Part shown: positions 12,105-47,768 of the stretch, in pieces
Position numbering within the stretch: position 1 is the first letter of the stretch
Layout of the letters: every line of letters starts with the position of its first letter
Assembly: GCA_050084515.1 (NCBI GenBank)
Contig: CM114271.1
Location: 248,001 to 312,000, forward strand
Direction of reading: 5' to 3'
Length of the DNA stretch: 64,000 nucleotides
DNA from: Blasia pusilla
Lineage: Eukaryota
Position numbers and translations under genes: made by a program
Notes under the pieces: model-generated
Seen by the model: the letters and a program-made list of their open reading frames with translations, nothing else
Database searches by the model: none
Told to the model about the DNA's origin: nothing

Positions 12105-14330
12105 GAAAAACTGGGCACTAAAGTGAGGACAAAATTCCAAGCATAGGGATCGACTAACCAAGCGGTATAAAACCTCTCCAATAGCCAAAGGGCGGACACC
12201 TGAAGGAGGCTTATCCATACCCAACAAACGACAAGCCCCTAAGACCCTAGAGAAAGAGAATGGGAGAGGACCTGCCGCAATATGTGCACACACCTTATAG
12301 AGAGAGACAAAGCCACTTGCTGAATCTGCCGGGATAAAGCAATCGCGGAGATGCTCAAAAACCATCCTTGATAGCCCGCTTGCTGATAAGCGAGGAGTAT
12401 GAAGAAAAGCCCTTGTGAAAACCTCCAAGTCAAACTCCAAGTCAAGGTCCGTTGTATAGTCTTCCACAAAAGGTGGAGCATTGCCACTTGAAGGAGGATG
12501 AAGAGCTTCTTAGAGAGCCATTGTTTCCGCACTTGGAACCGTTGGAGAGAGAGGACCTTATTCTCGAGCTGCACGTGAAAACTCACCAACTTGCCCCAAG
12601 AGTGGACTTCATCGAAGGTGTTTTTTTTATTGAAGGCCTTCCATGATTGGCATGTTGAGTGGGATGAGCCGCAGCTAAGGCCTTGCTCCCAATCCCAATC
12701 CCCAGACATAAACCGTCGAATACGTGTGGAGGTTTCATGATGACCGTCCCTCCACCCTTTGGAGGGAGGACTAAAACCCATTGTGGGAAGAATAATAGGA
12801 GATACCAAGCATTAATATCTGTGGGATCATGCGCTAACCCTTCTAATAGGAAAAGCAAAGCTTGTTGGATGTTGGGGCAAAGAGCAATATGAATGCGAGT
12901 GTAGTTTCTAGGACGATGAAGACCTGGATGGAAAAAGCGAAGGAAATCAATTTGGCTTAATCACGTCCAAACACTTATTGTGGGGAGTGTAGTAGCAGGT
13001 GGTATTGTGTTAGGGATTGATGACCCATGCATGGATCGATAGTATCGGTGATGTCTTTTGTTCCCATTAGGAGCAAACTCCTTACCACAAGGTATGCAAC
13101 AAACCTTTGGTACAAATGAAGAAGTAGAAGGGTTATATGGAGAGGAGGTGGGGGGTGCAAGAGTTGGTAATGGACGACGATGAGGGGGTAAGTAGGTTGG
13201 GGAAGGAGGAGGAGGAAGAGGGGAGATAAGGGTAGAATAGATGGGAGTTGGAAGCAAGGGCACAGATGAGATATGTGGGGATGGCAAAGTAGTAAGATTC
13301 GATAATAATGGATCAAGGTTAGGCTCAATAGGACAAGACAAAGAGGGGAGAAGTGGATAATCTTAAAGAAATGTAGCAAGTGTAATGGGTGTATTAGTAT
13401 CTGGAGGAAAATGGAAAGATCTACTATAAGGACGTGAACGAGGGGGAGATGTTACGGCTAAAGGAGGGCGTGTAAAACCAGAGAAGCGAGAAGATGGAGA
13501 ATCCAACTCCTTCTCTGATGCCATAGAACAAAGGTAGACAAGTCATCAAAGACAAGGAAAGACATATGAAACGTGGTTTGGAGAAATCATGAGGATAACC
13601 AGCAAAACAAATGTAGTGGAATCGGTCCAAATTTAGATGGAGAGAATAAAATTAGGCAATATCGAATTTATGATTGAAAATTACTATAAAAATATATAAA
13701 GCAATTGAAAAGGAAAAGTGATCTATATGGTATCGAAAGAGGTGGCTCAAGAATATGAATTACTAATGCCCTTAAGGAAATAGCAAAAGTATGTAGGGGC
13801 GAAACACTAAGGTAAAGAGTTGAAAGAGCAAGGAAGAGGTTCGGGAGGAAGTGACCTAAAACAAACCTGTACACAAAAATAGGCGCCTACTGAGAAGGAA
13901 GAAAAATAGAAAACCTTCTTAATATGAAAAGAACGAGCTGGTCGAGATGATCTAAACAAGACCAAACACATCCAAAACCGACACTCCATGAGAAAGCTAT
14001 GAAAGAAATTGGAAACACCAAAAAAGAGGATGTGAGGAGAAAGTGAGCCAGCCACGAATGACTGCTATGACGGAATGAGTGCGTAATGTTGGGCCCAGCC
14101 CGTATCAAAAGATCGAGAAAAGCAAGAGGAATCCCTTAAACCGATGGTAATCGGGTGTCGCTCTATAAGGAGAGCAATATGTGTGAAATTGCGATTCGGA
14201 ATCTATAAGCACATTAAGGAGAGAAGGAGATCCAAAGATCCCAAGAATTTTGGAAAACTCAATCTTAAGTGGAAAAAAGAAGACCCCAAAGTTCAAGCTT
14301 GAGAAGATGAACATGTTGGGTCATAGATAG
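12105..14330 (-). mobile_element. Non-LTR retrotransposon, CRE/RLE-like, 5' part (zinc finger plus RT N-terminus), decayed
   Basis: ORF 12096-12467 (SASGLSRMVFEHL...RLLGMDKPPSGVRPLAIGEVLYRLVSR) resembles RLE-clade RT subdomains 0-2. C2H2-like CIPCGKEFAPNGNKRHH lies in 12961-13341. The upstream boundary is approximate. Confidence 0.75.
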
Positions 14331-17830: not shown

Positions 17831-20800
17831 CACAAAAACCCGAGCTCGCGCCCGGTGTTCCATGTCTGGACATGTCCGTTTCCTTGCAACCTTCGTAGTT
17901 CATGATTGCCTCCGATTAATTTCACTCACTCTTTCTTATTTCTCACCTCTCATCATAATGGGACCAGTGGGTTTCCTCTCATATCCACACGTGTAATCCT
18001 TTCCTTCAACGTGTTGGCTTCTGTCACTTGTGATATCTATGTCCAACCATACTTTCCAAAATCCCATGTATCTAATAAAAGACTCCATATAGCCATTTCT
18101 TATCTAAGTCCTACTTGCCATATGTGGCTCCAAGTCTGCTTAGTCATTCTTAGTAACCTTGCTTTCTTTCATTCTTAGATCCTCACTATTTCTTCACCTC
18201 TATGTTTATCCTCGACTTCCAAGTGCAAGTGCATCATTAGTATCCATTCCTTGCAACATTCTGATTTACGAAAAACCTTTTAGGAAGCACTATCAGCAAA
18301 CCACCTCTCATGTCTCTGAGCTCCTTAATCTCCTAGATTGTCATGGCCGGTTGTTGAATTCTGAAGTCTTAGTAATGAGGATGGGAGCCTTGCATCAAGA
18401 GCCCTAAATCTTTCCATCTATGGAGAAGAGTGATCCTAATCCCCTTGTCTGATCCATAAATCTCGCTTACACATCTAGATTAGTAAAAACTTTGAGACCC
18501 TTTACTCCCTGATCTTGCTTACACATTGAGTGCTTCTAGCATGTCTGAAACAAGCTTCACATCTGCAACTTTGTATCTTGGTCTAAAAAAATGAGGTTGG
18601 TTTTTGACCTAATGTAGTCCAACCAAATCTCTCTTCTAAAAATTTCTCGCGTTTGAAGTAGAAGAGAAAAGTCTTGAAGAGAGGTTAAGGATTTGGTCTT
18701 TTCTTTTGAAGAGAGACTCTACACTCTTCCTCTCCTCTCTTACTCTCTCATGCCAAAAGACCAACCCCCGAAATCTAACAGATTGTCATGCGCATACACA
18801 TTGTTACACAACATACATCGTTGTCGCCAAACATACACACAAACACGCACGATCCCATGCTAACTCATGGTATCCAAACAATGAGACAAGAAGTACCAAA
18901 ATATCTCCAATAAATGAAGTAGATCCAATCTCTCTCAACCATAGCTCTCAAATAAGTGCACTCTCACACATCTCTCTCAACGTCAAACCAAACCCACTCT
19001 CCTAATGAGAGGCTTGGGTAACACTCACAAGACAAGTAAGACCATAGCTCCGCCACCTCATACCAAGAGGTTCAACAAAGAGAGAATGAGCTCTCAAGCT
19101 CTCCCTCTTTGAGGTATACCCCCTTCCCTCTCCCAAGCTCTCTCCTCAGTAACCTATGCTCGTAGGTCACCTCCTTGGCTCTTGACCTACTATAGCGGGT
19201 CAAGAGCCACTTTCCAAAGTGGAAAGTCAACTCTACCAACCATGGAAACTTACCCAAAATATGGCTCCAAATGAGTCGAAACGAAGGGGAAACTTGCTCT
19301 CTCAGGTTTCTCAGTGACCTCAGCAGGTTATTTCAACCTCTAGAGCATGTCCTCCTCTACTCGCGAAGGCGCTCTACCAGATCTCTTTGATCTATCCTAA
19401 AAAGTCTGACAACTGTCGTACGCATACACATCGCTATACAACATACATTGTTGTCGCAAACATACACACAAACACGCATATCCCATGCTAACTTATGGTA
19501 TCCAAACAACGAGACAAGAAGTACCAAAATATCTCCAATGCCCCCCTAGCTGGTGGTTAGGTCCCTCTAACTCCACATAGCCATCTTTTCCTACCTACCA
19601 TGACATAGATCTCTCGGACGCTAAGAGCAAAAAGGTTGGGTGCACATGTAGCCCCATCGTTAGTTGCCTTCTTGTCATCCATGTCATAGACACAAGTCAG
19701 AATCTAGAACAATCTACTCTATGAACATCTCGGATACATCCATCATCCTTGAGGAATCTTAGTGAGAGATGGTGTCAACCATGCCATATGCCATACTCTC
19801 AAACACCCATCACAGACTAGCATAGTGGCTTCACCATGGGCGCAACCACACAACATACATTGCAAGCCTGCAAGAACTACTGCTAAGCTCGGATATTATA
19901 CTATCAATATTAGGAAGGTGATATGGCGCACAGTTATGCCCATGGTCCTTCCAAACCATACCATCGCCTCCCTCCTATAAGAGAACACCAAATGGCAAAC
20001 TCTCACGCACTCTCAAGATGGTGCGTCTTGAAGTCATATCCAACGTTGTGGATGCCGTTTGCTACAAGTAGACATAGTCTCTCTGATAAAACCTTCAAAT
20101 AGTAGGTCGATAACGACCTCCTCAAAAGTCGCATACCTCAATGTATCCCGATGATACGCAATTGCCAAGTTCTCAAACGTCATGGGCATCACTCTTTGAA
20201 ATAACTCAGCCCTCTGAGAACATGCTCACATCCATACATCAGGGTCATCAAGGTTCAACACCTCACCAATATCTCGACAAATAGCCAGAGGTAAATCAGG
20301 CTCTCAACCATAAAGTAGCAAGTACTGTGCAAAAAACGCGAAGGATGCCTACCTGCTGAATCTGAATCCTATCGCCGACCACAAAAACTGAAGGTCCCAA
20401 TCTTTTCTCCTAAACCCTCTCAACAAGCCATACTTGCGTAATCCTCTCTTCACCGTTTGCACAACCCTCTTTGCTAGTCCATCCGCCTCACGATGATCTC
20501 TCGAAGTGGTTCGGTGGTCGATCAACGCGTGATCACACAGGGCCAGAAACTCTCACGAAACTCTGTACCCTGGTTTGTCAACACCTCACTTTGTGCACTG
20601 TTATCACTTAACACTTGATCTAGGAAGGCATACGCTACTCCCTCACTCCCTTTGTCAAGAAATACAACCAACTCTATCCACTTCGAGAATTTCTCGACCA
20701 TCACCAACACATGACGACTATCACGCTCCATCAAAGGCAAAGATCGTGAAAAATCCAAACTCCATCTATAACCTAAACGCATGATCGGAAGTGGATGCAA

Positions 20801-20984
20801 CTATGGAGTCAGAACATTGAACGATGCTTGGACTCGATCACACACCATGCAAATGGCAACAAACTATTGAACATCAGTCTGCATGCCTCACCACCAGTAT
20901 TGTATCTGGAGCAAGTTGTACGTCTGCTTCACTCCAAAATGACCCAACTCCTCATGGGCATGACGCACCAAACGTGCTCTCTGA

Positions 20985-21112
20985 TATCGTGCGCATACAC
21001 ATCACTACACAACATACATCGCTGTCACCGAACACACACACAAACACGCATGATCCCATGCTAACTCATGGCATCCAAACAACGAGACAAGAAGTACCAA
21101 AATATCTCCAAT
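20985..21112. repeat. E3 short repeat S, terminal copy (128 bp)
   Basis: Near-identical to 21626-21753 (tgtcgtgcgcatacac...aaatatctccaat). Confidence 0.95.
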
Positions 21113-21623
21113 AAAGTAAGATCAATCTCTCTCTCCACCATCTCACAACATAGCTCTCAAAGGTGTGCACTCTCTCTCATGTCAAACCAAACCCACTCTC
21201 CTAATGAGAGGCTTGATAACACTCACAAAGCGAGGTACCATAGCTCCGCCGCCTCATGCCAAGAGGTTCAACAAAGAGAGAATGAGCTCTAAAGCTCTCT
21301 CTCCTTGAGATATATCCCTCCCCTCTCCCAAGCTCTCTCCATGGTAACCTATTCTCCCAAGTCACCTCCTTGGCTCTTGACCTGATGTAGGAGGTCAAGG
21401 GCCACTTACCAAAAATAGTAAGTCGATCATATACTCAAAATGGTACTTACCTAAAATAGTAAGTTCCTCAATATGGCTCCAAATGAGCCGAAACGAAGGG
21501 GAAACCTGCTATCTCAAGTTTCCAAGGGCCTCAGGAGGTCACCCTCGACCTACTGGGCGTGTCCTCCACTACTCATGAAGGCGCTCTATTAGATCTCACC
21601 GATCTATCCTAAAAGACGTGACA
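21113..21623. repeat. E3 long repeat L, 3' copy (~511 bp)
   Basis: Near-identical to 30807-31317 (aaagtaagatc...aaagacgtgaca), with only scattered differences by eye. Confidence 0.95.
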
Positions 21624-21625
21624 GT

Positions 21626-21753
21626 TGTCGTGCGCATACACATCGCTACACAACAAACATCGCTGTCACCGAACACACACACAAACACGCATGATCCCAT
21701 GCTAACTCATGGCATCCAAACAACGAGACAAGAAGTACCAAAATATCTCCAAT
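21626..21753. repeat. E3 short repeat S, internal copy next to the PPT-like tract
   Basis: Separated from L by a 2-bp spacer (gtgaca-gt-tgtcgt). Followed on + by cgcccccct, which is sense AGGGGGGCG and PPT-like. Confidence 0.93.
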
Positions 21754-21933
21754 CGCCCCCCTAGCTGGTGGTTAGGTCCCTCTAACTCCAGATAGCCATC
21801 TATCCCTACCTACCATGACATACATCTCTCGGACGCTAAGAGCAAGAAGGCCGGGTGCTCATGTGGCCCCATCGTTAGTCGCCTCCTTGTCATCCATATC
21901 ACAGACACAAGTCGGAATGTAGAACTACCTTCT

Positions 21934-22380
21934 CTATGTACATCTTGGACACATCCATCGTCCCTGAGGAACCCTAGTGAGAGGTGGCGTCAAACATGCC
22001 ATATGCCATCCTCTCGAACACCCATCACAGACTAGCATCGTGGCCGCACCACGGGCAGATTCACACAACATACAACGCAAGCCTGCAGGAACTACTGCTA
22101 AGCTCGGATCTACTGTACCATCAATGTTAGGAAGGTGACATGGCGCACAATTACGCACATGGTCCTTCCATACCATACCATCGCGTCCTTCCAGCAAGAG
22201 AACACCCGATGGCAAAATGTCACGCACTCTCAGGATAGTGTGCCCTGTAGTCACATCCAACGTCGTCGGTGCCGTCTGCTGCAAGTAGACATAATCTCCC
22301 TGATGAAACCTCCGGATAGTTGGTGGATAACCACCACCCCGAATAGTCTCATACCTCAACGTATCCCGATCGTTGTGCAA
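21934..22380 (-). pseudogene. E3 integrase C-terminal region with PHD finger
   Basis: CMLC...LVCDGCSRGWHMACLTPPL...WMCPRC is a C4HC3 PHD consensus. It is also seen, decayed, in E1 (~11170-11300) and E2 (~19725-19865). Confidence 0.92.
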
Positions 22381-22399
22381 TCGCCAAGTTCTCGAACGC

Positions 22400-23930
22400 C
22401 ATGGGCATCACTCTCGAAATAACTCAGCCCTCACGAGAACATGCTCGCACCCATACATCCGGGTCATCAAGGTTCAAAGACCTCACCAAAGATCTCGACG
22501 AATGGCCGCAGGTAAATCGGCTCGCCATAAAGTAGCAAGTACGGTGAAAAAGACGCTAAGGATGCATGCCTGCTGAATCTGTATCCCATCGCCAACCATG
22601 GCAACTGGAGGTCCCAATCTCTTAGGTGACCTCTCTGCAAGCCATACTTTCGTAAACCCCTCTTCACCGTCTGCACAACTCTCTCCGCTAATCCATCCGC
22701 CTCAGGATGATCTCGCGAAGTCGTGTAGTGGTCGATCAGGGCCTGATCACACAAGGCCTGGAACTCACCGCGAAACTCAGTACCCTGGTCTGTCAACACC
22801 TCAGCTGGTGCGCCATAATGACTCAGCACTCTGTCAAGGAAGGCATAAGCTACTCCCTCACTCGCTTTGTCAGGCAATGCAACCAACTCGATCCACTTCG
22901 AGAAGTGCTCGACCATCACCAACACATAACGACTGTGACGCTCCGTCAAGGGAAAAGGTCCTGCAAAATCCAAACTCCATCTATACCCTAAGCCCATGAT
23001 GGGTAAGGGATGCAATTGTGGAGTCGGAGCATTGAACGATGCTCGGACCCGATCACACACCATGCACCTGGCAACAAATTGCTGAACGTCAGTCTGCATG
23101 CCTCGCCACCAATACTGAATCTGGAGCAAGCTATACGTCCGCTTCACCCCAAAGTGACCCAACTCCTCGTGGGCATGCTGCACTAGTCGTGCTCTCTGCG
23201 CAGGATGCGGCACTACGCGTACTCTGCCATCCTCCCAAACCCTCAAAACATGTGTCCCCTCCCAACGGAACCATCTGGCCTGCTGTAGGATCCGATCCCG
23301 CTCTCTAGCATCCATGGTGCTTGCAACGCTGCCAGTACGAAGGTACTCCAAGACTACTCCATCATCATGAATATCTCGGCCACTTGTCGTGTCCTCAATG
23401 GCCTCGGGATCCAAGGACTCTCCACTAGACCTCGCCATCGAAGTCTCCACACTCTGGCTCTCCATAGCCAACATGCCTAAATAGGCTGACGCGTGCCATC
23501 CTGGCACCGACTCCTCATCACTCTCTCCATGCCATCGAGCTCTAGTCGCATCTTGCTGACTCGGGCATGGGTTACGACTCAACCCATCTGCATCCTGGTT
23601 GAGCGTCCCAGGTCTATGTACCACCTGAAAATCATACTCCTGCAACAACAGAGCCCATCTCGCAAGCTTCCCTCTAAGCTTGTCGGACTCGATCAACCAC
23701 TTCAGTGGTTGATGATCAGTGATGATGGTAAAGGGGTTGCCGAATAAGTAACACCTGAAATCGCGCGACCACACACATGACCAAGCACTCACCCTCATAC
23801 GAGCTGAACTTTGCCTCTGCCACGTTGTTCGAGCGGCTAGCGTAAGCCACCACGAACTCTCTACCCTCATCATCATGCTGGGTGAGCACCGCTCCAAGCC
23901 CCAACATGCTCCAATCTGTGTGCAATAGGA
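22400..23930 (-). pseudogene. E3 RNase H plus DDE integrase
   Basis: RNase H: LHTDWS...VVAYASR...TDHQPL...ADGLSR. Integrase: HHCC finger (HEELGHFG...CMVC) and core WSLDFAGP, VLTDQGTEF, HPEADGLAER. One frameshift. Confidence 0.95.
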
Positions 23931-25005
23931 AAGGACGCCCCCTGATCGGTCTCCTCAAGATGAGTGCGGACGTCAACCTCTCCTTGAGCAACTGAAATGC
24001 TCGCTCCTGCTCATCCCCCCAATGCCACTCGTGATCCATTTTGGTCAGCAAGGTCAGCGGCTTCGCAATCGAACTGAATCCCTTGACGTATCGCCGATAG
24101 AAGTTCGCCAATCCCATGAATGCACGAACACGGCTCACATCTCTAGGGCGTGGAATGCGTGTGATAGCCTCTACCTTTGTCTGCTGAACACCAAGGCCCC
24201 CTGGATATATCGTATGACCCAAGTACTCAATCTGGTTGTAGAAGAACTTACACTTGCCTAGATGTAGCTTCAGCCCATGTAATTGCAATCGTCGAAACAC
24301 CTCCTCTAGGTGTTGCTCATGCTCCTCAACCGTGGCGCTGAAGACTACGATGTCATCAATATAACACCTAGCAAAATCCAGAACAGCCAAGATCCTATCC
24401 ATGACCCTCTGAAACTCAACCGGGGCGTTCTTTAACCCAAATGGTAAGAACCGCCATTCGTACAAACAATCCTTCCCGTGAGGATCGATGCCCCAAAATG
24501 ACGTCTTCTACCTGTCCTCCAATCTGATAGGGAGCTGATGGTATGCGGCTCGTAAATCCAATGAACTCAAGACCTTTACGTGACCAATCGCATCAAAGAT
24601 CTCCTCAGGGGTGGGCATGGCATACCTATCGGACTTCGTCTGCCGATTGATAGGTCGGTAATCCCCACACATCCGCCTATCCGTCTAGTTGCAATGCACA
24701 TCCTTCTTGGCGGGCATGACACTGGCAGATGCATACTCCCCATGCGACATCTCCACTAGTCCTGCTCCGACCAAGTCCTGGCTCCTACTTTGAATCAGAG
24801 CCCTCTCCATATCACTGTGCCTGTAGGGTCGTCGAAAGATCGGCATATCACTCGACAACTCAATGCGGATCCCCGGTCCCTTCAGTGTACCCAAATCCTC
24901 CATGCTAAACGCAAAGCAGCTCCTATAACTCCCGAGGAACTGATGTATTCGGCGCCGCTCTCCTCCTGTCAACTTAGGGCCCATCTCTGGCTCCCAAGTC
25001 TCCAT
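23900..25005 (-). pseudogene. E3 reverse transcriptase (Ty3/gypsy type)
   Basis: PIFRRPYRHS, YEWRFLPFGLKNAP, RCYIDDIVVFS, KCKFFYNQIEYLGH; broken by stops. Confidence 0.95.
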
Positions 25006-25344
25006 CGTGACTACGGTAGGACTCTTCGGCGCGGGTATCGGTGGTTGCTATGGTGCAACCCCGTCTCGAACAACAACACTCGGCCGCTCTCCTGCAGCCA
25101 ACTGCAAACTCTAATCTCCTCCACGTGCAGTTCGAAACCACGCTCGATGTTGTGGCTATCATCTCCTGCAAAATATCCCAAGAAGTCCAAGGGTGTCTCT
25201 CCCGATCTCCCCTGGTGCGTAGATCTCCTCGGGTGTAGCCCCCAACCACTGCCTCCACCATCTCGGTAGGCATGGGGCTCACCAACGCAACCGTTGTGAT
25301 CTGTCACGATCTCATACGATGTTGCTCAGCCACTCCCAAGCTGA

Positions 25345-26285
25345 GGATCCATATCAAGCACTTCAGGTCCATCGCCTGACCCAAGACATGGCGTCATGAT
25401 GCCTCTGACACTGATGGTATTGCCATCACTCCTGTGGGAAATCCTATCGCTCGCTCTCTCTCGTCGACGTTGGGCTCCACCAACCGCTGAACCAGGTCAT
25501 CCCAAACCAAGCCAGGACCGGCCTCCTTGTATGCATAGGAAGCGGGAAAACTCACAAACGTGGGCAAGGCTGCCCGCGGCCTGCCTACCCTGTTGACCAC
25601 AGTTAGCGGTCGATCATCGTGCCTCACTTCCTGTGATCGACGACCTGGATCCAGAATGGAATCCACTAACAAAGGGGAGGGGCGCTCCACTCTCGTATAC
25701 GCCCTCCATAACATCGCATGGGGCACCAAGTTGGTCCACCATAGACGCGGGCGATGGTCTCTAGAACCTACACTCGCCGCATCCAAGAACACTGCCGGGC
25801 CGATCCAGGCACGCACCTGATGAGCACTAGTCACCACCCGTGACCTGGAGTCTCCTAAGATCGGCACATTCTCCAGAATGTAGGCTGGAGAACGAGGCGG
25901 TGCTCTTGCAATCGCCGTAAGACCCTCAACATCTCCCAAAACAACCTGGACCGAGTGTCACCAACCCCATTTGCCTCGTCCAAAGACTCGATTGGCCCTA
26001 ACATGGCCAACCGACAATGACCAAATCAATGGTCCCTACCGCTCTAAGTCTTGCGCCCCAACAACAAAATATCCTCGGTAGGGAACTCTGGTACTTCAGA
26101 TCGCTGGACGCTTGCACAATAAGTCGGGAAAACGAGGCGTAATTGCGCCACATATCGAGTGCGACGCGCCCGCAACATCATCACTCTCCAAATACATGTC
26201 GGGCCAGACTCGCACTCGCCTGCAAAAGCAAAGACTAACCCGTGCTAATCCCTCCAAAGAGATCTAACACTCGAATACCCTCCTC
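25345..26285 (-). pseudogene. E3 C5 cytosine DNA methyltransferase domain (DNMT3-like), disrupted
   Basis: Manual translation gives: motif I GIRVLDLFGGISTG (~26281-26240), II YLESDDVA (~26195), III EDILLL (~26075), IV IDLVIVGWPC*GQS (~26030-25990; PCQ with CAG>TAG), VI YILENVP (~25883-25863), VIII LDAASVGSRDHRPRLWWTNL, IX ERERAIGFPTG and X *RHVLGQAMDL (~25395-25362). The motifs are in canonical order. Confidence 0.92.
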
Positions 26286-26699
26286 CGGGACACACCACAC
26301 AATGGGTGTGGTATCCAAGGTGTCATCGTAGCACTCCTCGCTACCTCGGGTTCGTCGCGGACCCGCCACGCTCTGGTGCAAACGCCGCTCCACGCGGGTC
26401 CGATGACGACGTGCTCATCGCTAATCGTTGAAGCTCCTTAGTCGAGCCCCACTGCGGCACCTCTCCTCCACGGAATGATGCAACTACCATAACACTCCTC
26501 TCCATAGAAATTTCAGGAACGGGAGTATCCTCTGCATGGACATGTCCCTCAATGAAATCACTAGGCCAAGTGATGTCACTGCTAAATGCTGCTAAGGTCG
26601 CCATCTCTCCTGGCCATTGCTCGATCACTGCATCTCTGGATCGAACGGGTAATGAGCTAAGGCGCCCATCACCTGACTGCCATCCTGGTCTGGAGGACG

Positions 26700-27156
26700 C
26701 TGACTCCTCCCAGTAATCCAGGGAAAACCCCATCGGGTATAACACTGCTCCACCAACCAAGACGTCACAGGACTCTGCATCAGTCACTATCGCCTTGGCG
26801 TGCACCACGGACTCATCTGTAGGATATCCCGGGCGAATCCTCACCACGACCTCCTATCAGGTGATATACTGTGTGGTACTCGCTCCACCCAAGGATGTCT
26901 GTAACCGAAATGGACAACGCTCCACATCGGCTCTCGTCAAGCCTAATCCTCTGAATGACGCTTTCCCCAACATCAAGGGTTGCGCTCCTGAATCCAACAA
27001 GACGCGTTGCGGACTAAAAGCTCTACCTCCAGGACTCACCAACTGGAAGACCTCTCCTCGGTTATCTAGCAACACAACACCAAGAGAAGCCATGGCACGC
27101 TCTATCGCGGGTGTAGCGGGCATCTCCGCCATCCTAGCGACCATGCACTTTGCCAT
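26700..27156 (-). pseudogene. E3 aspartic protease
   Basis: RVLLDSGAQPLMLG (DSG catalytic motif) and downstream CDVLVGGAVL. Confidence 0.85.
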
Positions 27157-27421
27157 GAATCGGCGTGGACGGCCCGAGCATCCGCTCCAAGGGCAGGTCC
27201 ATCACCTCCTCTGCAATCACCTCTGAACATGATGCAGGAACTCCAACTCCGCGCTCACATAGTGAAGCGGCCAGCCGAAAAGCCTCGGCGGGCGTACCCC
27301 CCAACGTCACAACATCGGAAGCAGAAAATAAAGGAGTGCGGTACACAACGGTGGCCGCCCCCAACAACGTGCTTGACACATGCCCCTCATGAGCATCAAC
27401 AATAGGAGTCTTCGCACTCGC

Positions 27422-29000
27422 TTATCCCATCGCCCTCCGTGCCTGCACACTAACAACATTACCAACTCTCCAAGAACTTTGTTGAGGACCCATCGTCCTC
27501 ATTGCTTCCGACAACGTGAAAGACTGAGGAAGCCTAGTCTGTCTTTTGGCTTCCCCTCGCTGTGGATCCAACTCTGCGGCTGCTCCACGCGTCACAACTG
27601 CGGCGGCCTCCATCTGTGAAACCCTGCACATCCATCCAGGATCCTCCTGATCTTTGGCTGCTCCATATGATGTCGATGCCACGGATCCGACATCGGGTAA
27701 CCTCAATGCCATAGCGGCAATCTGCTCCTGTAGCTGCTGTATCTGAGCAGCCATCCCAGCCTCACGTCCGCCATCTCCCTCGGCGCATCTAGGTGGTGGT
27801 ACTCTACCTCCTCCACGGGCAACTCCAGCTCCTCGTCCCCCAACGGGACCACATGGTGCACGATCCCTAGGTGCACCCGGACCGGCTACTCGCTCTGGTG
27901 CCCTCTCTAGCCCTCGGTCCGAAAGTAACTCAGGATGTAAACTGAAACACCTGGCGCGTGTATGACCATACCTCTGACAATAGTCACACTGATAACCTCC
28001 TGGTGCAGCACCATCTCCTCCTCCATGCTGAGGCACACGTCCATGACCCTGACGAGTGCAATCGCGCTGATGATGGGCTCCACCACATGACCAACAAGTA
28101 ATAGTAGGCGGCTGCTGCAAAGCCGCATATGAAGGCGCAGGTCTCTGTGGCACGGCCTCCCGATATCCTCCCTGAGCTCGTGGTGCCACAGTCGACCTAT
28201 CTCAGAGTCCACGTTGCTGCATAGGTGGTGTAGACAATCGTGACTGCTCTCGCCCAAAACCCATGGTGGCTACGCTCTCCTCCGCCATGTTGCGCTCAAT
28301 GTTCTCGGCGTTCCTAAAAACATCTCTCAACGTAGGGGAGGTGTTCATAAGAAGCACCCCCTCCCGCACCCGTGTCCGCAGGGTCCGGTCTAGCATCGCG
28401 TACCATGACTGGATAGCCTGAGCCTCTGTCACCCCCTGAGTGACGCTGATCAACCGGCGCAAGTGAGTGTAAGCCTCACGCAAACTCTCACCCGGGCGCC
28501 TCTGGAAGTCGTGGATGCTCCGCAACTTCTCCATCCGTACCCCCTGGTAGCTCGCCCTCAACTCAACAAAGAACTCAACCACAGGGTTGAACCAAGGACG
28601 AACCCGACTAGACGGTGCAACTGCTCCCGTGTGAGTGACTCCTCCTAAAATATCACTAGTGGAAGAGTCAATAGCCTCTCCTAACTCCTCCTCCTCATCT
28701 GGGAACGGCTCTGTCCATGACACATAATGTGGGTCATAGTAGAGCCTCCACACCTCAATCTCACATGCATATCTCTGAGAGAACTCATGGTAATCGTCCA
28801 TGGGCCCCCTCTAAATCTTTGGAACATACCGTTCCATCTTTGTAAATGGGTTAAACTCTCTAGAGTTCTGGCCCATTGGGAGTCTCACCAACTTCTAAAC
28901 TCGCTATAAAATCGCAACTCAATCGTGCCCCTCTCGCACTGAAAACCTATGTCGGTCCTCTACCCCGTCGTCCATCTCAAATGACGCCCAACTGGTAGGA
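27422..29000 (-). pseudogene. E3 gag (capsid-like region plus two CCHC zinc knuckles), disrupted
   Basis: ORF pieces 28202-28801 (FQRRPGESLREAYTHLRRL, gag-like) and 27422-28189 (CWSCGGAHHQRDC, CDYCQRYGHTRARC). The true start is not defined. Confidence 0.85.
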
Positions 29001-30092
29001 CCACTCACAATGTGTGGCAATGTGCTCACAAACTCCTCTACACCCTCCCCCTCGTCTGACGATGACACAGAAGGAGGTCGAGGTGGTCCCTCACGTGGAG
29101 ACCCTCGGAACCTCGCGCCACTCCGCGTAAAACCTCTAGAGCTACTCTCGGGTTCACCACCTCGCCTCTCAAAGTCCCGAACGGACCCCGTGATGATCCT
29201 CCTGCCCCTCTCACCTGATCACTCTGAACCTCGTGAGGAATCCCTCAATCACTCATCCCAAACATGCGGCACTCGATCTACACTCTCTCTCCCCGAGACG
29301 TGTAACGTGCGGCAACACGCAGCGTGGTGCGGCAAATCGACCAGGCTATCATCTCATCAAAAACCTACCCTCAACTCCGGACATCCCACACAGGTCTATG
29401 TCCCCTAGACCACATACATAAATAATGCTCTCAGCATCCACACACCCAATATCCCCAAATAAATCCCAGAATCCCTCACACGTGCACGGTAAAGGACCAG
29501 AATGGGTAACCTGAACACATGTCGATGTCGCTCCTCAGCAACTGCAAATCTCGACCCCAACTCGATCGTGGAGACAACTCCTCCAATCAGCAAGTCATAC
29601 TCCTCCCGTACTGATGCTGCTCAAAACTCCTCAATAGAAAGTTCGGTCCCAGCGGAACGGTGCGGCGTTGCAGGCGGCACGGAACGGCTACGAACGAGCA
29701 CGGCCCTCGATGGTGGGATGCGGCACTCGGCGGCATACCATCCTCAATCAATAATAATCCCACACTCTGCTCCACAATGATGGTGCGGCTCGCGATCGAG
29801 CGGTGCGGTGCGACCCACGAGCGCACGGGCGTGGCAATCGGCGGCTAGCGTTGCGACTCACGGGGTCACGCCACGATACTCGATCGTCGTCGGCGGCTAC
29901 CAATCACAACATAGCAGCATGAAATCAAAACTCAAACACCATAACCGAGGTCATCCGCCATCGGTTGATGAAGAAACTGCGATGACGGTGGCGGCCAAAA
30001 CAAAGTACGTGGTGGCGACGCAAGTCAAGGAATCAACGAACGTCGTGGAAGACCCTCCACTCCGTAATGGCGGCGATGGCACCCAAAGGGTG

Positions 30093-30240
30093 GACAATGG
30101 ATGGTGGACCGTTGATAGTGACGGTTGACCGCTGATGGTGATGGCCGACTAATGACGGTGATGGTTGACCGTTGATTGTGATGGTTGACCATTGACGGTG
30201 ACGATTGACCGTCGACCGTTGACGGTGACTATGATGGTGG
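30093..30240. repeat. Degenerate minisatellite in the E3 5' leader
   Basis: Repeated tgacggtgatggttgaccgt-like units; absent from the E2 leader. Confidence 0.8.
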
Positions 30241-30790
30241 CGGCTGATTTAGGGTTTGCACAATTTAACCCTAAAAATCGCCTAGCAATGGCAGCTTTAC
30301 AAGATTGACCATAACTTTTTACTCGCAACTCTAAATTCTGCATTGTTTGTTGCACATCGTGCACAGCTTCACAATCTACGCCAGCATCAAAAAATATTTA
30401 GAATCAAACATTTCAGTAAAACCTGACGGGGACTGTCGTAAAGCCCAATGTCTCTTTCTCCTACACCAAATTCGGCAGCGCTCCCGCGCTGATTTCTCCC
30501 AACGAAAATGTAACATCTATAAAAATACAAATCAGAAAGCTACATGGTGCTCCCGAGAGCACCAGCATGGGGCAACCCACCCCCATACTCAATCCCTATG
30601 AGAAATTGGGCAGCGCTTCCGCGCGCCACTCTTCCACACGAAAAATCGGCAAATGCAACGAATAATGAAAGCAGCCCTTGCTCCGGTGAGCACTCCCATG
30701 AGCCGCTGAACGGGGAACACGGTCCCCAACCTGCAAAAACAACGAGTGACCAGCGAGCTCCCCCATGAAGCCCTCTCACTCTCTCATTCT

Positions 30791-30806
30791 CTCATTCTCT
30801 CTTTGT
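30791..30806 (-). promoter_or_regulatory. Putative self-priming primer-binding site of E3
   Basis: Sense ACAAAGAGAGAATGAG directly abuts the 5' L repeat and is the reverse complement of a 16-mer inside L (perfect at 21271-21286; one AG shorter at 30967-30980). No tRNA-type TGG PBS is present. Confidence 0.65.
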
Positions 30807-31317
30807 AAAGTAAGATCCAATCTCTCTCTCCACCATCTCACAACATAGCTCTCAAAGGTGTGCACTCTCTCTCATGTCAAACCAAACCCACTCTCCTAAT
30901 GAGAGGCTTGGGTTACACTCACAAAGCGAGGTACCATAGCTCCGCCGCCTCATGCCAAGAGGTTCAACAAAGAGAATGAGCACTCAAGCTCTCTTTCCTT
31001 GAGGTATACCCCTCCCCTCTCCCAAGCTCTCTCCATGGTAACCTATTCTCCCAAGTCACCTCCTTGGCTCTTGACCTGATGTAGGAGGTCAAGGGCCACT
31101 TACCAAAAATAGTAAGTCGATCATATACTCAAAATGGTACTTACCTAAAATAGTAAGTTCCTCAATATGGCTCCAAATGAGCCGAAACGAAGGGGAAACC
31201 TGCTATCTCAAGTTTCCAAGGGCCTCAGGAGGTCACCCTCGACCTACTGGGCGTGTCCTCCACTACTCATGAAGGCGCTCTATTAGATCTCACTGATCTA
31301 TCCTAAAAGACGTGACA
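30807..31317. repeat. E3 long repeat L, 5' terminal copy
   Basis: Direct repeat of 21113-21623. No S copy at this end. Confidence 0.95.
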
Positions 31318-34300
31318 CTGAGAAAGATGAGGCACTACATGCATTCTACCATCCCTCCAAACTCGCAACACATGTATCCCCTCCCACTGGAACGATGTGG
31401 CTCGATGTAGGACTGATCCCGCTCTCTAGCACCCACTATGTTGGCAACGCTACCAATACACAAGTACTCCAAGACTACTCCATCATCGTGAATGTCTCGG
31501 CCACCGGTCGTCTACTCATCCGCCTCTGGATCTTAGGACTCTCCATCAGACCTTGCAACCGACCTCTGAACAACTTGGCTCTCTATATCCGACAAGCCCG
31601 AATAGGCTAATGCGTGTCATCATGGCACCAACTCCTCATCACCATGCCAACTCTTGCCATGCCAACGAGCTCCAGTCACATCTTGCACACTCGAGCATGG
31701 GTTACGGCTCAAACCATCTGCATCGTGGTTGAGCGTCCCAAGTATATGCACCACTTGGAAGTCATACTCTTGCAACCAAAGAGCCCATCCTGCAAGGTTT
31801 CTTGTAAGCTTGTCCGACTCCATCAACCACTTAAGTGGCTGATGATCAGTAATGATGGTAAAGGGGTAGCGGAAAAAATCACATCTAAAATGTGCGACAG
31901 CCCACACAACATCCAAGCACTCATCCTCATACGAGCTATACTTCGCCTCAGCATCGTTATTCGAGCGACTAGCGTAAGCCACCACGAACTCTCTACCATC
32001 ATCGTCATGTTGGGTGAGCACGGCTCCAAGCCCCAACATGCTCCAATCTCTATGCAATTGGAAAGGACACCCCGTGATCAATCTCCTCAATATGGGTGCG
32101 GACGTCAATCTATCCTTGAGCAGCTAAAATGCTCTCTCCTGCTCATCCCCCCAATGCCACTCCTGATCCACCTTGGTCAGCAAGGTTAGCGGCTTCACAA
32201 TCGAACTGAAACCCTTAACGTACCGTTGATTGAAGTTCGCAAATCACATGAATGCATGAACTCGACTCACATTTGTAGGGTGTGGAATGCGTGAAGTAGC
32301 CTCTACCTTCATCTGTTGCACACCAAGGCCCCTTGGGTATATCCTATGATCCAAGTACTCAATCTGGTCGTAGAAGAACTTGCACTTGCGAGGATGTAGC
32401 TTTAGCCCATGTAATTGCAATCCTCGAAATACCTCCTCTAGATGTCACTCATGCTCCTCAACAGTGGCACTTAAGACTACGATGTCATCAATATACACCT
32501 ACCAAAACACCACGTGTACTCTTGCCTGCAAAACAGCCGCTAACCCAGTGCTAATCTCTCCAAAGAGATCCAACACCAAAATACCCTCCTCTGGGATGCG
32601 CCATACAATGGGTGTGGTATCTAAGGGCGTCATCATAGCACTCTCGGCTACCTCGGGTTCCTCCACGCGGTCTCCACATGCTCAGTGGCTAAGGGTCAAA
32701 GCTCCTCAATCGAGCCCCAAAGCGGCACCTCTCCTCCACGGACTGATGCGGCGACCATCATACTACTCTCCATAGAAATGTCAAGAACGGGAGTATCATT
32801 TGCATGGATATGTCCCTCGATCAAATCACTAGGCCAAGTGATGGCGCTGCTAAATGCTACTAAGGTGGCCATCTCTCTTAGTCGGCGCTCGATCATCGCA
32901 CCTGTCAATCGAATGGGTAATGAGCTAAGGCGCCCATCACCTGATTGCCATCCTGGTCAATATGACGCTGACTCATGCCTGTATTCCAAGGAAAACCCCA
33001 TAAGGTACAACACTCCTCCACCAACCAAGCCGTCGTAGGACTCTGCATCATGACTCATCTGTAGGGTGTTGGGGGTGAATCCTCACCACAACCTCCTGTC
33101 GGATGATAAAGTGTGTGGTACTCACTCCATCCAAGGATGTCTGTATCCAGAATGGACAACGCTCCACATCGGCTCTTGTCAAGCCAATTCCTGTGAATGT
33201 TGCTTTCCCCAACATCAACGGTTGTGCTCCTGAATCCAACAAGATGCATTATAGACTAAAAGCTCTACCTCCTTGACTCACCGATTGGAAGACCTCTCCC
33301 CAGTTATCCAAAAAAATAACACTAGGAGAAGTCATGGCACGCTCTATCGTGGGTCTAGCGGGCATTTCCGCCATCCTAGCAACCGTAACCTGCCATGAAT
33401 CTAACGTGGCCAGCCTGAGCATAAGCTCCAAGGGTAGGTCCATCACCTATGAACGTGATGTAGGAACTCCAACTCCACGCTCACACAGGGTAGCGGCCAA
33501 CCAGAAACCCTCAGCGGGCGTACCTCTCAACGTAATAACATCAAAATCAGAAAATAAAGGAGCACGGTACACAACATCCTTTATTGTGGCCGCCCCCAAC
33601 AACGTGCTCAACACATGCTCTGCTGAGCATTAGCAATAAAAGTCATTGCACTCGCTTCTCCCATTGCCCTCCGTGCCTACACACCAACAACATCACCAAC
33701 TCTCTGGGAACTTGATCATGACCCATCGACGGGGTCCTCATCGCCACGGACAACGTCTAGCCTGGTCTATTTCCTCACTTCCCCTCGTTGTGGATCCAAC
33801 TCTGCGGCTGCTCCACACGTAAAAACTGGGGTAGCCTCCATCTCGGCAACCCTGCACATCCAACATGGATCCTTGATATCTCTGGCAACTCCATAAGATG
33901 TCGATGCCACCGATCCAACATCGGATAACCTCAATGCCATAGCGGCAATATGTTGTTGTAGCTACTATATCTGAATAGCCATCCCAGCTTCACGCCTGGC
34001 GTCTCCCTCAACACGTCTATGTAGTGGGACTCTACCTCCCAACAGGACCACCTGATGGACGATCTATAGGCCCACCCCGAACAGCTTCTCGCTTTGGTGC
34101 CCTATTTGGCCCTCAATCCAGAAGAAACTCAGGGTGCAAGCTGAAACATCGGGCACGCGTATGACCATACCTCTGATAATAGTCACATTCATAACCTCAT
34201 GGTGAAGCACCATCTCCTCCTCCATATAGAGGCACGCATCCATGACCCTATTGAGTGCAATCGTGCTGATGATGAGCTCCACCACATGACCAACAAGTAA

Positions 34301-37300
34301 TCATAGGCGGCTGGTGCTGAGCCGCATATGAAGGCGCAGGTCTCTTGTTTTCTTCCCTGAGCTCGTGCTGTCACAGACCTATCTCCAAATCATCGTTGCT
34401 ACACTGGTGGTGCAGTCAATCGTGACTGCTCTTGCCCAGAACCCATGGTGGCTACGATCTCCTTCGCCATGTTGCGCTCAATGCTCTCAGCAGTCCTAAA
34501 AACATCTCTCAAAGTACTGGAGGTATTCATAAGAAGCACCCCCTCCCTCACCTGTGTGCGCAACGTCCAATCCAGCCTTGCCTACCATGATTGGATAGCC
34601 TGAGCCTTTGTCACCCCGTGAGTGACGTTAATCAACCGGAGCAAGTGGGCGAAGGCATCACGTAAACTCTCACCCGGGCGCCTCTGGTAGTTGTGGATGC
34701 TTCGCAACTTCTTCCTCCATATCCCTTGGTAGCTCGCCCTCAACTCAAAGAAGAACTCAACCATGGGGTTGAACCTGGGACCAACTTGACTGGATGATGC
34801 AACTGCTCTAGTGGGAGTCAGCCCTCCTAAAACATGATTGGTGGAGGAACCTTCTCCTGACTCCTCCTCATTTGGAAATGGCTCAGTACATGACACATAG
34901 TGTGGGTCATAGTAGAGTCTCCAGGCCTCAATCTCATGGGCATATCTCTGCGAGAACTCATGATAATTGTCCATGGGTAGCCCGTCTAAATGCTGGAATA
35001 TTTCAGTCCATGATGTAAACGGGTTGAGCTCTCTAGAATTCTTAGACGGCTGTGAGTCACACCAACTCCTAAACTCCAAAATTAAGTCATGTAACTCTAT
35101 AGTGCCTATAGCATCCACAAACCTATATGGTCCTCTGCCCCGGTTGTCCATCTCTAAACCAACAGGTAGGACCACTCAATGTGTGTAGTGGATCACTAGC
35201 ACACTCCTCTACACTCTCCCCCTTGTCTGAAGATGACACAAAAGGAGATAGTCACAGAGGTGGTCTCTCACGTGGAGACTCTCGAAACCTCGCACCACTC
35301 CAGGTCAACCCCCTAGAGCTATTCTCGGGTCCACCACCTCCCCTCTTGAAGTCCTGAAAGGGCGCCGTGATGACCCTCGTGCCCCACTCACACGATCACT
35401 CTCAACCTCACGAGTAATCACTCAACCATTCAACTAGACAGGCGACACTCAATCCACACTCTCTCACTAAGACGTGTGTTGTGCCCCAACAAGCGGCGTA
35501 GTGCAGAAAATAGTACTATCCTATCATCTCATCGACATGACATACCCTGAACTCATGACATCCCACACAGGTCTATGTCCCCTAGCCCATACATCAATGA
35601 TGCTCTCAGCATCAGCACGGAACCCAATATCCCAAATAACTGTCCAATACCCAGAAATCCCTAACACCTACAGGGCAAAAGACCAGAATGGATAATCTGA
35701 CAACAAGTGTCGATGTCGCGCCTCAGCAACTCAAAAACCTTGACCCCAACTTGGTCATCAAGACAACTCCTCCAACCAGCAAGTCGTACTCCTCTAGTAC
35801 TGACGATGCTCAAATCTCCTCGATGTGCGCTGAGGGTCCAGCGGTACAGTGCTAAAAATAGCACGTCACTCGGTAATAGGGTGCGGCACTCAGCGGCATA
35901 TCCTCCTAAAGAGCAATACACGCTCTGTTCTCCAGTGCGGTGCGGCCACAAGCGGTAAGGCGTGGCAATCGACGGGGCGTTGCGGCTAGGGGCATCATGG
36001 CACGGTACTCGATCGTCCTTGGGCGGCTATAAATCACGGCATAACAAAGCGGATAGAACACTACGACCCCATCAATCCAAAATGCAAACGGTTTGCCGCG
36101 AACACAAGCACCCGCGGCGGTGTGGGATAGAGATTCAAACGCACAACTCTACTGGCGGCACTAATGCAGGGTCAGACGGAGCAGCACACGGCTGCACAGC
36201 GGCCCAATTTTTTATCGACACTAAGAGGTCCAAAATCAGGGTAGCGGCCCTAAAGCGCCGACGGACCACATAGCATACAACGGAGGTACCAAATGCACAG
36301 TCGGTTGGCGCATCTCTGGGACAGTCGACTAGGACGTGGTAGGACAGACGTTGTCCCCCGAAAAAATTATTTATTCATTTAACTAGAATAACCCTCCGGG
36401 AAAATTGGATCTCCAATATCTTTCTTTACTAGATAGCCCCCTTCTTGATAAGTATGCAAATTAAATGCCTTATCACAAATCCCTCCTAAGATTAAGGGTC
36501 AATACTCCCCAAAAGTGGGATCTACTCACTCCAACTCCAAATAGCTGAATTCACTTGTCCTATCCATCAAGTGAACTGATTTTTTTTTACCTCTCAAGAA
36601 AGAATTTCTACCCAAAAATTTTGAAATTTCACTCACACCTTGGAACGATGACTATGGCAGTCCAACAAAAATAATCATAACTTCGTTTTTCAATCTCCAA
36701 ATTATGCACCATTTCTTCACCAGCGTACACCACTTCCCGATCTATGACCTCATCAAATTAGTTTCTCCATTTGATTTTCCACCAAAACCTGAGGGGGACT
36801 GTCATGCAGCCCAACGTCTCTTTCTCCTACGCAAAATTTGGCAACGCTTTCGTGTTGATTTCTCCCAAAAAAATGCAAAACTTATGAAAAAACAAATCTG
36901 AAAGCTACACGCTACTCCCGTGAGCACCGGACTGCCCCCATACTCAATCCCTATCTAAAATTGGGCAGTGATTCCGCGCGTCACTCTTCCATAGTAAAAA
37001 TCAGTAAAGGAAACATCAAAAGTAAGCAACTCTTGCCCCGGTGAGCACTCCCATAAACCGCTGAATGGGGAATACGATCCCTGACCTCCAAAACCAGGGA
37101 GCGACCAGGGAGCTCCCCCATGAAGTTGTCTCACTCACTCATTCTCTCTTTGTAAATCAAGTAGATCGAATCTCTCTCAACACCATAGCTCTCAAATGTA
37201 TGCACTCTCACATGTCTCTCTCAATGTCAAACCAAACCCACTCTCCTAATGAGAGGCTTGGGTAACAACTCACAAGGAAAGCAAGACCATAGCTCCACCG

Positions 37301-37333
37301 CCCCATGCTACGAGGTTCAGCAAAGAGAGAATG

Positions 37334-37525
<192 letters not shown>

Positions 37526-38329
37526 GGTATACCCCCTTCCCTCTCCCAAGCTCTCTCCTCGATAACCTATGCTCGGAGGTCATCTCCTTGGCTCATGACC
37601 GGCTGGAGCGGGTCAAGGGCCACTTCCCAAAGGAAATTCAAGTCTACCAAATATTGAAACTTACCCAAAATAGTAAGTTTCTCGATATGGCTCCAAATGA
37701 GCCGAAACGAAGGGGAAACCCGCTCTCTCAGGTTTCCTAGGACTTCAGCAGGTCATCCTTGACCTCCTAAGCCTATCCTCCTCTAATCGCAAGGGCGCTC
37801 TACCAGATCTCTTTGATCTATCCTAAAAAGTCGTGATAGGATAGACTGGATCCCAGAAAGAGGGGTGAAAAAAAAGGAAGATGTCACTTGAAACACTAAG
37901 AGCAACCTGGACAGATTAGGGGCACTTTATTTGGGACTCCCAACCTCATTCCCAACACTTCATCTCGAAATGGCTCCATTGAGGTACCCATGAAAAAATT
38001 GAGAGGAAACCCACAGTTTCAATTCTGATCAGAGGTGACAGAAAACTAATAGCTAACAGATGACAACTTTAACCAAATATTGTATAACAACCATTCATAA
38101 ATATACATCTAAGACGAGTAGTCGAGAGGTTCTGATCAAAGATTACCAAAAAAAAAAAAGAATTGCAAAATGACGAAATCCGACAAGTTGCAAAACAGTG
38201 TGTAAGGCAAAAGGTATGAGAAACTTATCATTGGGGGCCATATGAATTAATGTTAGGAAACACAAATCCATTCAGACCTGCAACCCATCGAAATGAGACA
38301 GATTGCAAAAGAGTTATGGAAGAGAGGAA

Positions 38330-47597: not shown

Positions 47598-47768
47598 GGA
47601 ACAAAGAAAGGTAATAACTTCTCCAAAAAGGAGTCCAAATAATGCATAATGGAATGCAAAAAGAAAATGGAAACTACTCAACACAAATACCAATTCAACG
47701 AAACTACACGTTTCATAACTTGAAACAAATCTGACAAGAACACTAGTGGTTGGTCAGACATGAACGGA
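47598..47768 (-). repeat. Dispersed copy of 9945-10109 (probable 5'-truncated LINE tail)
   Basis: Shared colinear blocks aaagaaaggt, aatgcataatggaat, ctacacg, tgaaacaaat and ggttggtcagac. Confidence 0.75.

Follow-up and report, generated by a model that had tools for sequence, protein, structure and literature searches.

Reverse transcription of the fission yeast retrotransposon Tf1 is primed by 11 nucleotides (nt) of the element's own RNA, which are released by an RNase H cut. In the accessible part of the literature on this mechanism (PMC6317226, citing Lin & Levin 1997, Butler 2001, and Atwood-Moore 2006), self-priming is described as demonstrated only in Tf1 and predicted for the Tf1/sushi group, and in plants as predicted only for Tcn1 (chromoviruses of moss and clubmoss) and for TAR of the Ty1/copia type; the words "Marchantia" and "PHD" each occur 0 times in that text. 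A separate peculiarity is on record for KnitGypsy-Dnmt3 of Klebsormidium nitens (de Mendoza et al. 2018, PMC5890265), which joins a Gypsy-type pol to a C5 DNA methyltransferase (DNMT) and has, according to the legend of Fig. 4c, Gypsy domains with a repeat structure "the same as that of a DIRS retrotransposon." The available portion of that paper uses the term "primer binding" 0 times, gives no termini, target duplications or mechanism, and regards the element as one that Klebsormidium acquired. Here, we describe a family of Ty3/gypsy-type elements that has such a repeat structure and probably primes itself, starting from a 64-kb stretch of Blasia pusilla DNA (contig CM114271.1, positions 248,001 to 312,000; hereafter, the window). 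The window contains retrotransposons nested in one another, all on the minus strand, which is the sense strand throughout. The two that matter most are E1 and the older copy E2, whose integrase gene is the host site of E1.

E1 (20985..31317, delimited by self-BLAST, reading of the junctions, and Pfam searches) has the order A1-PBS-gag-PR-DNMT remnant-RT-RH-IN-PHD-PPT-B1-A2-B2, where A and B are repeat units, PBS is the predicted primer-binding site, PR is the protease, RT, RH, and IN are the reverse transcriptase, RNase H, and integrase, and PPT is the polypurine tract. The 511-nt 5' repeat A1 (30807..31317), which begins with TGTCACG and was called L in the original prediction, is followed directly by the PBS ACAAAGAGAGAATGAG (30806..30791), which adjoins the last base of the repeat, at 30807. 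The complement of this site is found within the repeat, starting 174 nt before its end. In A2 (21113..21623), the 3' copy of L, the 16-nt motif CTCATTCTCTCTTTGT (21286..21271) is intact and pairs with the PBS at 16 of 16 positions, whereas in A1 the motif CTCATTCTCTTTGT (30967..30980; the predicted transcript start) is 14 nt long, lacks a CT, and pairs with the PBS through 10 plus 9 overlapping nt or, in a shifted register, through 12 bp. The 16-nt self-complementarity originally claimed for the element is, accordingly, exact with the 3' copy of L but not with the 5' copy. The TATA-like box that had been noted upstream of the motif is indeed present and starts 28 nt before it in both A1 (TATAC, 31004..31008) and A2 (TATATC, 21314..21309). 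The pairing previously reported for E2 likewise holds at 15 of 15 positions (37138-37152 against 37321-37335), and a 16th pair between the PBS (37138..37153) and the motif (37320..37335) has been lost through a T>C change in the last base of the latter. All five copies of A in the window retain the motif, and two of the five share the identical 2-nt deletion. The 5' repeat of E2 also contains a run of about 187 nt (37336-37522), (GA)n in the sense direction and (CT)n on the plus strand, located exactly between the TATA box and the motif; since such a run would shift the promoter off the predicted start, it looks like a microsatellite expansion that followed insertion.

Relatives of these elements were collected with a profile built from an alignment of 40 integrase homologs, which was scanned over metagenome contigs; 598 stretches matched, 489 of them were confirmed, and the best 80 (loci L001 to L080, with integrases 43 to 77% identical) were compared. 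Thirteen 5' junctions identified via leader homology in these loci bring the total, with E1 and E2, to 15 (L001 and L002, as well as L005 and L006, are apparently the same insertions sampled twice). The site directly 3' of the 5' repeat comes in four unrelated sequence types, each of them complementary to a motif in its own repeat: alpha (E1 and E2), beta (L001, L028, and L072), gamma (L051, L055, L070, and L076), and delta, represented by the near-intact relative L021, whose 16-nt pair came from a scan for inverted repeats. An exact complement of 10 to 17 nt is located inside A for 10 of the 15 junctions, and when G-U pairs are allowed, the duplex measures 12 to 20 bp in all 11 registers scored, the 20 bp of L072 including one G-U pair and one mismatch. 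Among four representatives, two to four pair types occur at 13 of the first 15 duplex positions. In all four types, the motif starts 26 to 32 nt after the TATA box, and in the relatives' own repeats it lies 115 to 182 nt upstream of the site. Repeat A, defined by the last base common to A1 and A2, ends 0 to 3 nt from the duplex in every type, so that its end falls where a minus strand primed at this site would be expected to start. The self-pairing proposed in the original prediction thus passes the check by covariation, with four site types each matched by their own repeat and compensatory pairs at 13 of 15 positions.

Two less targeted scans recovered part of the same set. The inverted-repeat scan returned 14 pairs of at least 13 nt, five of which are the motif and PBS (in L001, L002, L021, L055, and L076). 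A scan of 715 kb, on both strands, for a strict TATA[AT]A followed by a complement found the four gamma elements at the expected place, along with 11 background pairs of 10 to 12 nt; the alpha and beta elements are missing from its output because their TATA boxes differ. An additional 19-nt inverted pair, with its arms 178 nt apart, was seen in L054 (5778-5974), about 900 nt past the B-A array, and may be the priming pair of a nested element. None of the four site types begins with TGG. No tRNA genes were found in the 64-kb window, and ARAGORN predicted none in the 80 loci or in the window, a count of 0 taken from output whose parsing is unchecked.

The probability of such matches arising by chance was estimated by shuffling repeat A with preservation of dinucleotides, 2,000 times per element. 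The shuffled repeats gave matches of about 6.3 nt on average and of 12 nt at most, and in no case out of 2,000 did they equal the 16-nt match of A2 in E1, the 15-nt match of E2, or the matches of L001 (17 nt) and of L055 and L076 (15 nt each). For A1 of E1, where damage has left a match of 10 nt, this length was equaled in 16 of 2,000 shuffles, and the cases of 10 to 11 nt were equaled in 5 to 18 of 2,000. The RNAs of eight elements, from the motif to just past the PBS (L028 and L021 were left out), were also folded: the minimum-energy structure pairs nt 1 to 9 or more with the PBS in all eight, and the pairing probabilities of the 5' motif with the PBS are mostly 0.8 to 1.0.

Three raw RNA runs carrying the same species label and one contig run were mapped to the element, with depth recorded in bins of 357 nt. 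The stranded reads fall on the sense strand of the elements, and most of them are 90 to 95% alike to the element and hence come from relatives. Read depth in A2 in the three runs declines from 77, 146, and 96 at position 21309 to 48, 39, and 44 at 21229 and to 20, 9, and 9 at 21148. This drop after the motif places the RNA 3' ends 57 to 138 nt past it, which leaves an R (repeat) region for the first strand transfer.

Taken together, the covariation, the TATA spacing, and the coincidence of the repeat end with the duplex support the original proposal that this family primes minus-strand synthesis with the start of its own RNA, as Tf1 does; we put the probability of this sequence-based reading at about 0.78. 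Transcription would start about 28 nt past the TATA box within A, at CTCATTCTCTCTTTGT, and the first 15 to 17 nt of the transcript would fold back over the R-U5 (repeat and unique 5') region onto the complementary site that adjoins the end of A. Cleavage just past the paired 5' nucleotides would release a 3'-OH, to be extended through U5 and then R. Since the end of an LTR (long terminal repeat) marks the start of minus-strand DNA, synthesis would begin at the edge of the duplex.

Several observations weigh against self-priming. The start of transcription, the cleavage, and the identity of the primer are deduced from the sequence, and no sharp read 5' end is listed near 30980 or 21286, at the resolution of 357-nt bins and with reads that come mostly from relatives. 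Stop codons and frameshifts break every element copy in the window, and E1 has lost 2 nt of the motif from its own 5' copy. At 5 of the 15 5' junctions, no complement of at least 10 nt was found. Three of these have visible causes: L007 lacks the motif through a 14-nt deletion, L022 has lost its PBS, and the PBS of L005 has diverged. L006 agrees with L005 in its diverged site, and in L058 only part of the motif is left. Finally, a tRNA-type site was judged by the TGG start.

The alternative that survives best, although it appears improbable, is that the duplex, as a conserved stem in the RNA, closes off the R-U5 region and serves another end, such as packaging, dimerization, translation control, or strand transfer, with priming left to some other primer. 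Covariation and folding prove conserved pairing rather than priming, and the RNA reads do not fix the 5' end, all of which would fit such a stem. Against it, the end of A coincides with the duplex, to within 0 to 3 nt, in all types, and no other primer site is visible beside A, where there is neither a TGG nor any sequence common to the four types. Still less probable is priming by a cellular RNA, either an internal tRNA fragment, as in the half-tRNA priming of copia-type elements, or a small RNA, with the match in the LTR being secondary. Half-tRNA priming sites do occur in plant Ty1/copia lineages, according to the accessible part of PMC6317226. Yet here the site differs among the four clades and is matched in each by the clade's own LTR, which disfavors a shared cellular primer because such a primer would keep the site constant; in addition to the absence of an initial TGG, pairing with the alpha site would take 15 pyrimidines among the 16 nt of the primer, apparently unlike any stretch of a tRNA. 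A chance match of CT-rich and GA-rich tracts, the null explanation raised with the original prediction, can be dismissed on the strength of the shuffles (0 of 2,000 for each of the five elements with matches of 15 to 17 nt) and the covariation, since, even though the alpha sequences are of low complexity and the damaged 5' copy of E1 offers only 10 exact nt (16 of 2,000 shuffles), the beta, gamma, and delta sequences are not CT/GA tracts and the position relative to the TATA box and the repeat end recurs in all types.

The interpretation of L as an LTR stood up only in part: the repeat is real, 511 nt long, and present in two copies, but a 128-nt unit, B, flanks its 3' copy on both sides. At the 3' end of E1, the polypurine tract AGGGGGGCG (21754..21762) directly precedes B1 (128 nt, 21626..21753, repeat family D5), which ends in ...CGACA and is separated from A2 (identified by self-BLAST) by a 2-nt spacer, AC (21624..21625), in the junction CGACA-AC-TGTCACG. 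B2 (128 nt, 20985..21112) directly follows A2 and forms the 3' terminus of E1, ending in ...CGATA; elsewhere in the window, B2 ends in ...CGACA in E3 and in ...TGACA in E2. The overall order is A1-PBS-internal-PPT-B1-A2-B2, and the same 3' array is found in E2 and E3. A thus stands alone at the 5' end, and the PPT adjoins B rather than A, unlike the two equal LTRs that characterize Ty3/gypsy elements. In E1, A1 and A2 agree in 501 of 513 aligned columns (97.7%) and B1 and B2 in 125 of 128 (97.7%); in six full-length loci, the B pairs are 88 to 96% identical and the A pairs 85 to 92%. The similar divergence of the A pairs and the B pairs indicates that both were made in one copying event.

The ends of the integrated element were read in both E1 and its relatives. 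E2 breaks off at 20983 and picks up again at 31326, and RNA reads from uninterrupted relatives span 20983 to 31326 directly (8, 6, and 3 first-mate-plus reads in the three runs). The target site duplication TCAG (4 bp) adjoins E1 on both sides, at 31318..31321 (5') and at 20981..20984 (3'); in E1's own uninterrupted sequence, the equivalent of the TCAG insertion site reads ...GCAG AGAGCACG. Exact 4-bp duplications also flank L001 (AAGG), L028 (AATC), and L007 (TACA), the last of which is a copy with the order A-int-B (int, internal region). The duplication matches at three of four positions in L051, L076, and E2 and at none of four in L055. The integrated ends are TGTCAYG at the start of A and CRYGACA at the end of B.

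When a library of A and B units was mapped onto the loci, 28 B-A-B arrays following the integrase were found in 27 loci, and in 18 others (L004, L007, L015, L016, L022, L030, L034 to L036, L039, L044 to L046, L048, L053, L058, L060, and L068), a lone B that ends at CRYGACA is followed by unrelated flank, the A-int-B order. This count leaves out L071, L072, and L079, which are cut by contig ends, and the irregular L009, L027, L054, and L063; grouping by flank identity reduces the rest to 21 distinct B-A-B insertions, not including E1, E2, and E3, and 17 distinct A-int-B insertions. A self-BLAST count gave B..B pairs in 25 of the 45 loci with at least 1,600 nt after the integrase. No B-like match was found upstream of the 5' A in the mapped loci. 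A run of G precedes B1 in all 28 arrays, and B1 and A2 abut as CA-NN-TG, the spacer being exactly 2 nt wherever both ends are readable in these arrays; B1 is largely missing from the array of L064. At the A2/B2 junction, the last base before the PBS is joined to the first base after the PPT, with a heterogeneity of 1 to 2 nt among related copies and outliers in L014 (a 19-nt insertion) and in L075 and L076 (an 8-nt deletion). The A-int-B copies may be primary integration products or later B1xB2 deletions. In two of them, the priming pair is specifically damaged (L007 at about 3684-4007 and L022 at about 3600-3690).

Because the PPT lies directly before B, the unit that is bounded by the PPT and the PBS, and would be copied by reverse transcription, is B+A, which is a circular permutation of the A+B unit bounded by the integration ends. 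This split repeat order is exact and lineage-wide. The 9,317-nt contig of L021 has similar ends (1-60 and 9200-9317) and the order internal-PPT-B-A-PBS-leader; it looks like a circle-like path into which the repeats were collapsed by assembly, with no bearing on the integrated form. The PPT edge is also visible in the RNA, as reads from the expressed relatives part from E1 exactly at 21753 (40, 82, and 52 reads in the three runs). These reads go on with a different B, GTTGTGGTACAC..., which is the B type of L001 and L028, so that the copies expressed here belong mainly to that subfamily. Two other joints in the reads are unexplained. One (21312/21807; 4, 6, and 9 reads) leaves out 494 nt between a point 54 nt upstream of the PPT and the bases immediately ahead of the A2 motif, and has no GT..AG ends; the other (30942/30773; 5, 2, and 5 reads) jumps 170 nt backward into R from a point immediately past the PBS and carries 9 additional letters. 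Both may come from variant copies or from template switches across the 5' stem.

How a permuted repeat could be copied and integrated is addressed here by a tentative model. Plus-strand priming at the G-rich PPT would start the DNA copy at B, and an RNA that extends from the A1 motif to a poly(A) site in A2 would yield, through a standard cycle, (B+A)-PBS-internal-PPT-(B+A). The two natural cDNA ends, that of U5 and the start of B, would then be joined, as in a two-LTR circle junction, and the integrase would open the CA-NN-TG junction of B and A beside the PBS, giving A-int-B-A-B. We regard this origin, by joining of the cDNA ends and opening at the PBS-proximal B/A junction, as possible but rather doubtful: the alternative order A-B-A-PBS was found at 0 of 13 5' ends with readable flank, the exclusive use of the PBS-proximal junction is unexplained, and the 17 distinct insertions with A-int-B only also speak against it. 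Four other schemes were set aside by reasoning, as none of them gives a B directly after A2: an additional start of plus-strand synthesis at a primer in the B/A junction, an RNA that reads through into B2, the use of the motif's 3' copy for priming, and concatemers. Their products would be A-int-B-A, A-int-B, or inverted copies.

The coding capacity of these elements places them among the Ty3/gypsy-type retrotransposons. The open frames of E1 between 21.9 and 28.8 kb include a gag-like protein with CCHC-type Cys/His motifs, which has no Pfam gag match, and the Pfam domains RVT_1, RT_RNaseH_2, Integrase_H2C2, and rve, followed by a C-terminal PHD finger (PF00628). L021 has the same pol domains plus an Asp protease, with gag-PR-DNA_methylase in one frame and RT-RH-IN-PHD in the next; the methylase match in its first open reading frame (PF00145) has an E value of 1.8e-13 and scores 51 bits against a cutoff of 22. 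In E1, the DNMT remnant between the protease and the RT (minus strand, 25394-25957) has no Pfam match of its own and is 49% identical over 164 amino acids to the 976-5082 region of L021 (E value, 2e-50). In the two open reading frames of L021 976-8226, no Phage_integrase match indicative of a tyrosine recombinase was detected at E values up to 0.1, and rve was. Among solved structures, the closest chains belong to Ty3 Gag-Pol (7q5b; E value, 4e-98) and the Ty3 RT (4ol8). E1 and E2 are, accordingly, degenerate Ty3/gypsy-type LTR retrotransposons with the order gag-PR-DNMT-RT-RH-IN-PHD. Their nearest named integrase homologs come from liverworts (Riccia, Calypogeia, and Marchantia), followed by Klebsormidium and Closterium, and a scan of viral contigs for the integrase gave no match. 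Judging by these homologs, the clade ranges from a charophyte to what is probably a liverwort, in addition to many metagenome contigs.

Compared with Tf1, the present elements have the same placement of the priming site, directly after the 5' repeat and pairing with what is here the predicted transcript start, and apparently lack a tRNA-type site, judging by the missing TGG start, as far as the available description of Tf1 goes; the duplex, however, is 15 to 20 bp long, compared to 11 in Tf1. They also differ from the Tf1/sushi group in having a PHD finger instead of a chromodomain at the C terminus of the integrase, a DNMT in pol, and the split order A-int-B-A-B instead of two equal LTRs, a distinction drawn from domains and repeat order. 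With Tcn1 and TAR, they share, according to the same partially available source (PMC6317226), a self-priming prediction in nonseed plants that rests on complementarity between the LTR and the PBS. In the accessible part of its description (PMC2864245), the LTRs of SM-Tcn1 are ordinary ones of 440 bp with TG...CA ends, its target duplication measures 5 bp, and its PPT adjoins the 3' LTR, whereas here the duplication measures 4 bp and the PPT is separated from A by B; these properties place SM-Tcn1 outside this clade.

A further counterpart is KnitGypsy-Dnmt3, which shares with the present elements a DNMT in the polyprotein (that of L021) and the DIRS-like repeat order combined with Gypsy domains; proteins with rve and PHD from Klebsormidium are also among the integrase homologs. 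The gag-PR-DNMT and RT-RH-IN-PHD frames of L021 and the DNMT remnant of E1 indicate that this clade matches KnitGypsy-Dnmt3. The difference is that the clade is found here in a liverwort-like genome and in metagenome contigs, with only a remnant of the DNMT in the window; by sequence, then, DNMT-carrying Gypsy elements occur outside Klebsormidium as well. DIRS, Ngaro, and PAT have the same repeat order, A1-int-B1-A2-B2, according to the legend of Fig. 1 in the accessible part of PMC5890265. The present elements differ from them in encoding a DDE integrase (H2C2 and rve) in place of a tyrosine recombinase and in having 4-bp target duplications, TG...CA ends, a PPT, and a predicted self-priming site. 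Among the listed literature matches on split direct repeats, judged by their titles and the starts of their abstracts, none dealt with integrase-encoding LTR elements, such repeats being treated there in connection with tyrosine-recombinase elements, and no retrotransposon paper joining a PHD finger, an integrase, and Marchantia was found. The Chlamydomonas element TOC1 reportedly has a similar "unusual arrangement" of repeats.

Further relatives of E1 lie elsewhere in the window. E2 consists of its 3' array B1-A2-B2 (18786..19540) and the segments 19541-20983 and 31326-37838, which are separated by E1. E3 (10227..12105) is the 3' part of a third copy, with the C terminus of the integrase, the PHD finger, the PPT, and B1-A2-B2. 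A fourth, diverged relative, E4 (about 40800-44350), encodes gag, protease, a DNMT-like region, and the start of the RT, with 35 to 55% amino acid identity to E1; its RT-IN part, both ends, and any repeat pair were not found within the window, the 5' end having been sought by reading 44300-47600. Further upstream in the sense direction, the minus strand contains a cluster of near-perfect hairpins (46180-46350), with a 12-bp stem, GGGAAAGATGGC...GCCATCTTTCCC, and a 14-bp stem around GTTATGAGAGAGGG; this cluster is the site where the GC skew of the window changes.

The mechanism of self-priming itself is already known; what these elements add is a further Ty3/gypsy clade, with a DNMT, a PHD finger, and split repeats, in which compensatory change over four sequence types provides the strongest support attainable short of experiments. 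The repeat order had been noted once before, in the Klebsormidium element, and its boundaries are now tied to the PPT and the priming site and its integration ends to an internal palindrome, which turns a remark in a figure legend into a testable question, the use of a permuted substrate by a DDE integrase. In genome annotation, software built to look for a pair of equal LTRs will call A the LTR and will then set the 3' end wrong by one B unit, miss the target duplication, and see no PPT beside the LTR. A bolder proposal, which at present seems unlikely, is that an entire streptophyte clade of DDE-integrase elements replicates via an obligatory end-joined intermediate: if self-primed reverse transcription yields ordinary B+A LTRs and the integrase recognizes only the CA-NN-TG palindrome inside each LTR, the cDNA ends must first be joined and the molecule then reopened beside the PBS, giving A-int-B-A-B. 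Should that be true, a form that is a dead end in retroviruses would be a productive intermediate here, and split repeats of the DIRS kind would have had an origin separate from that of the tyrosine recombinases.

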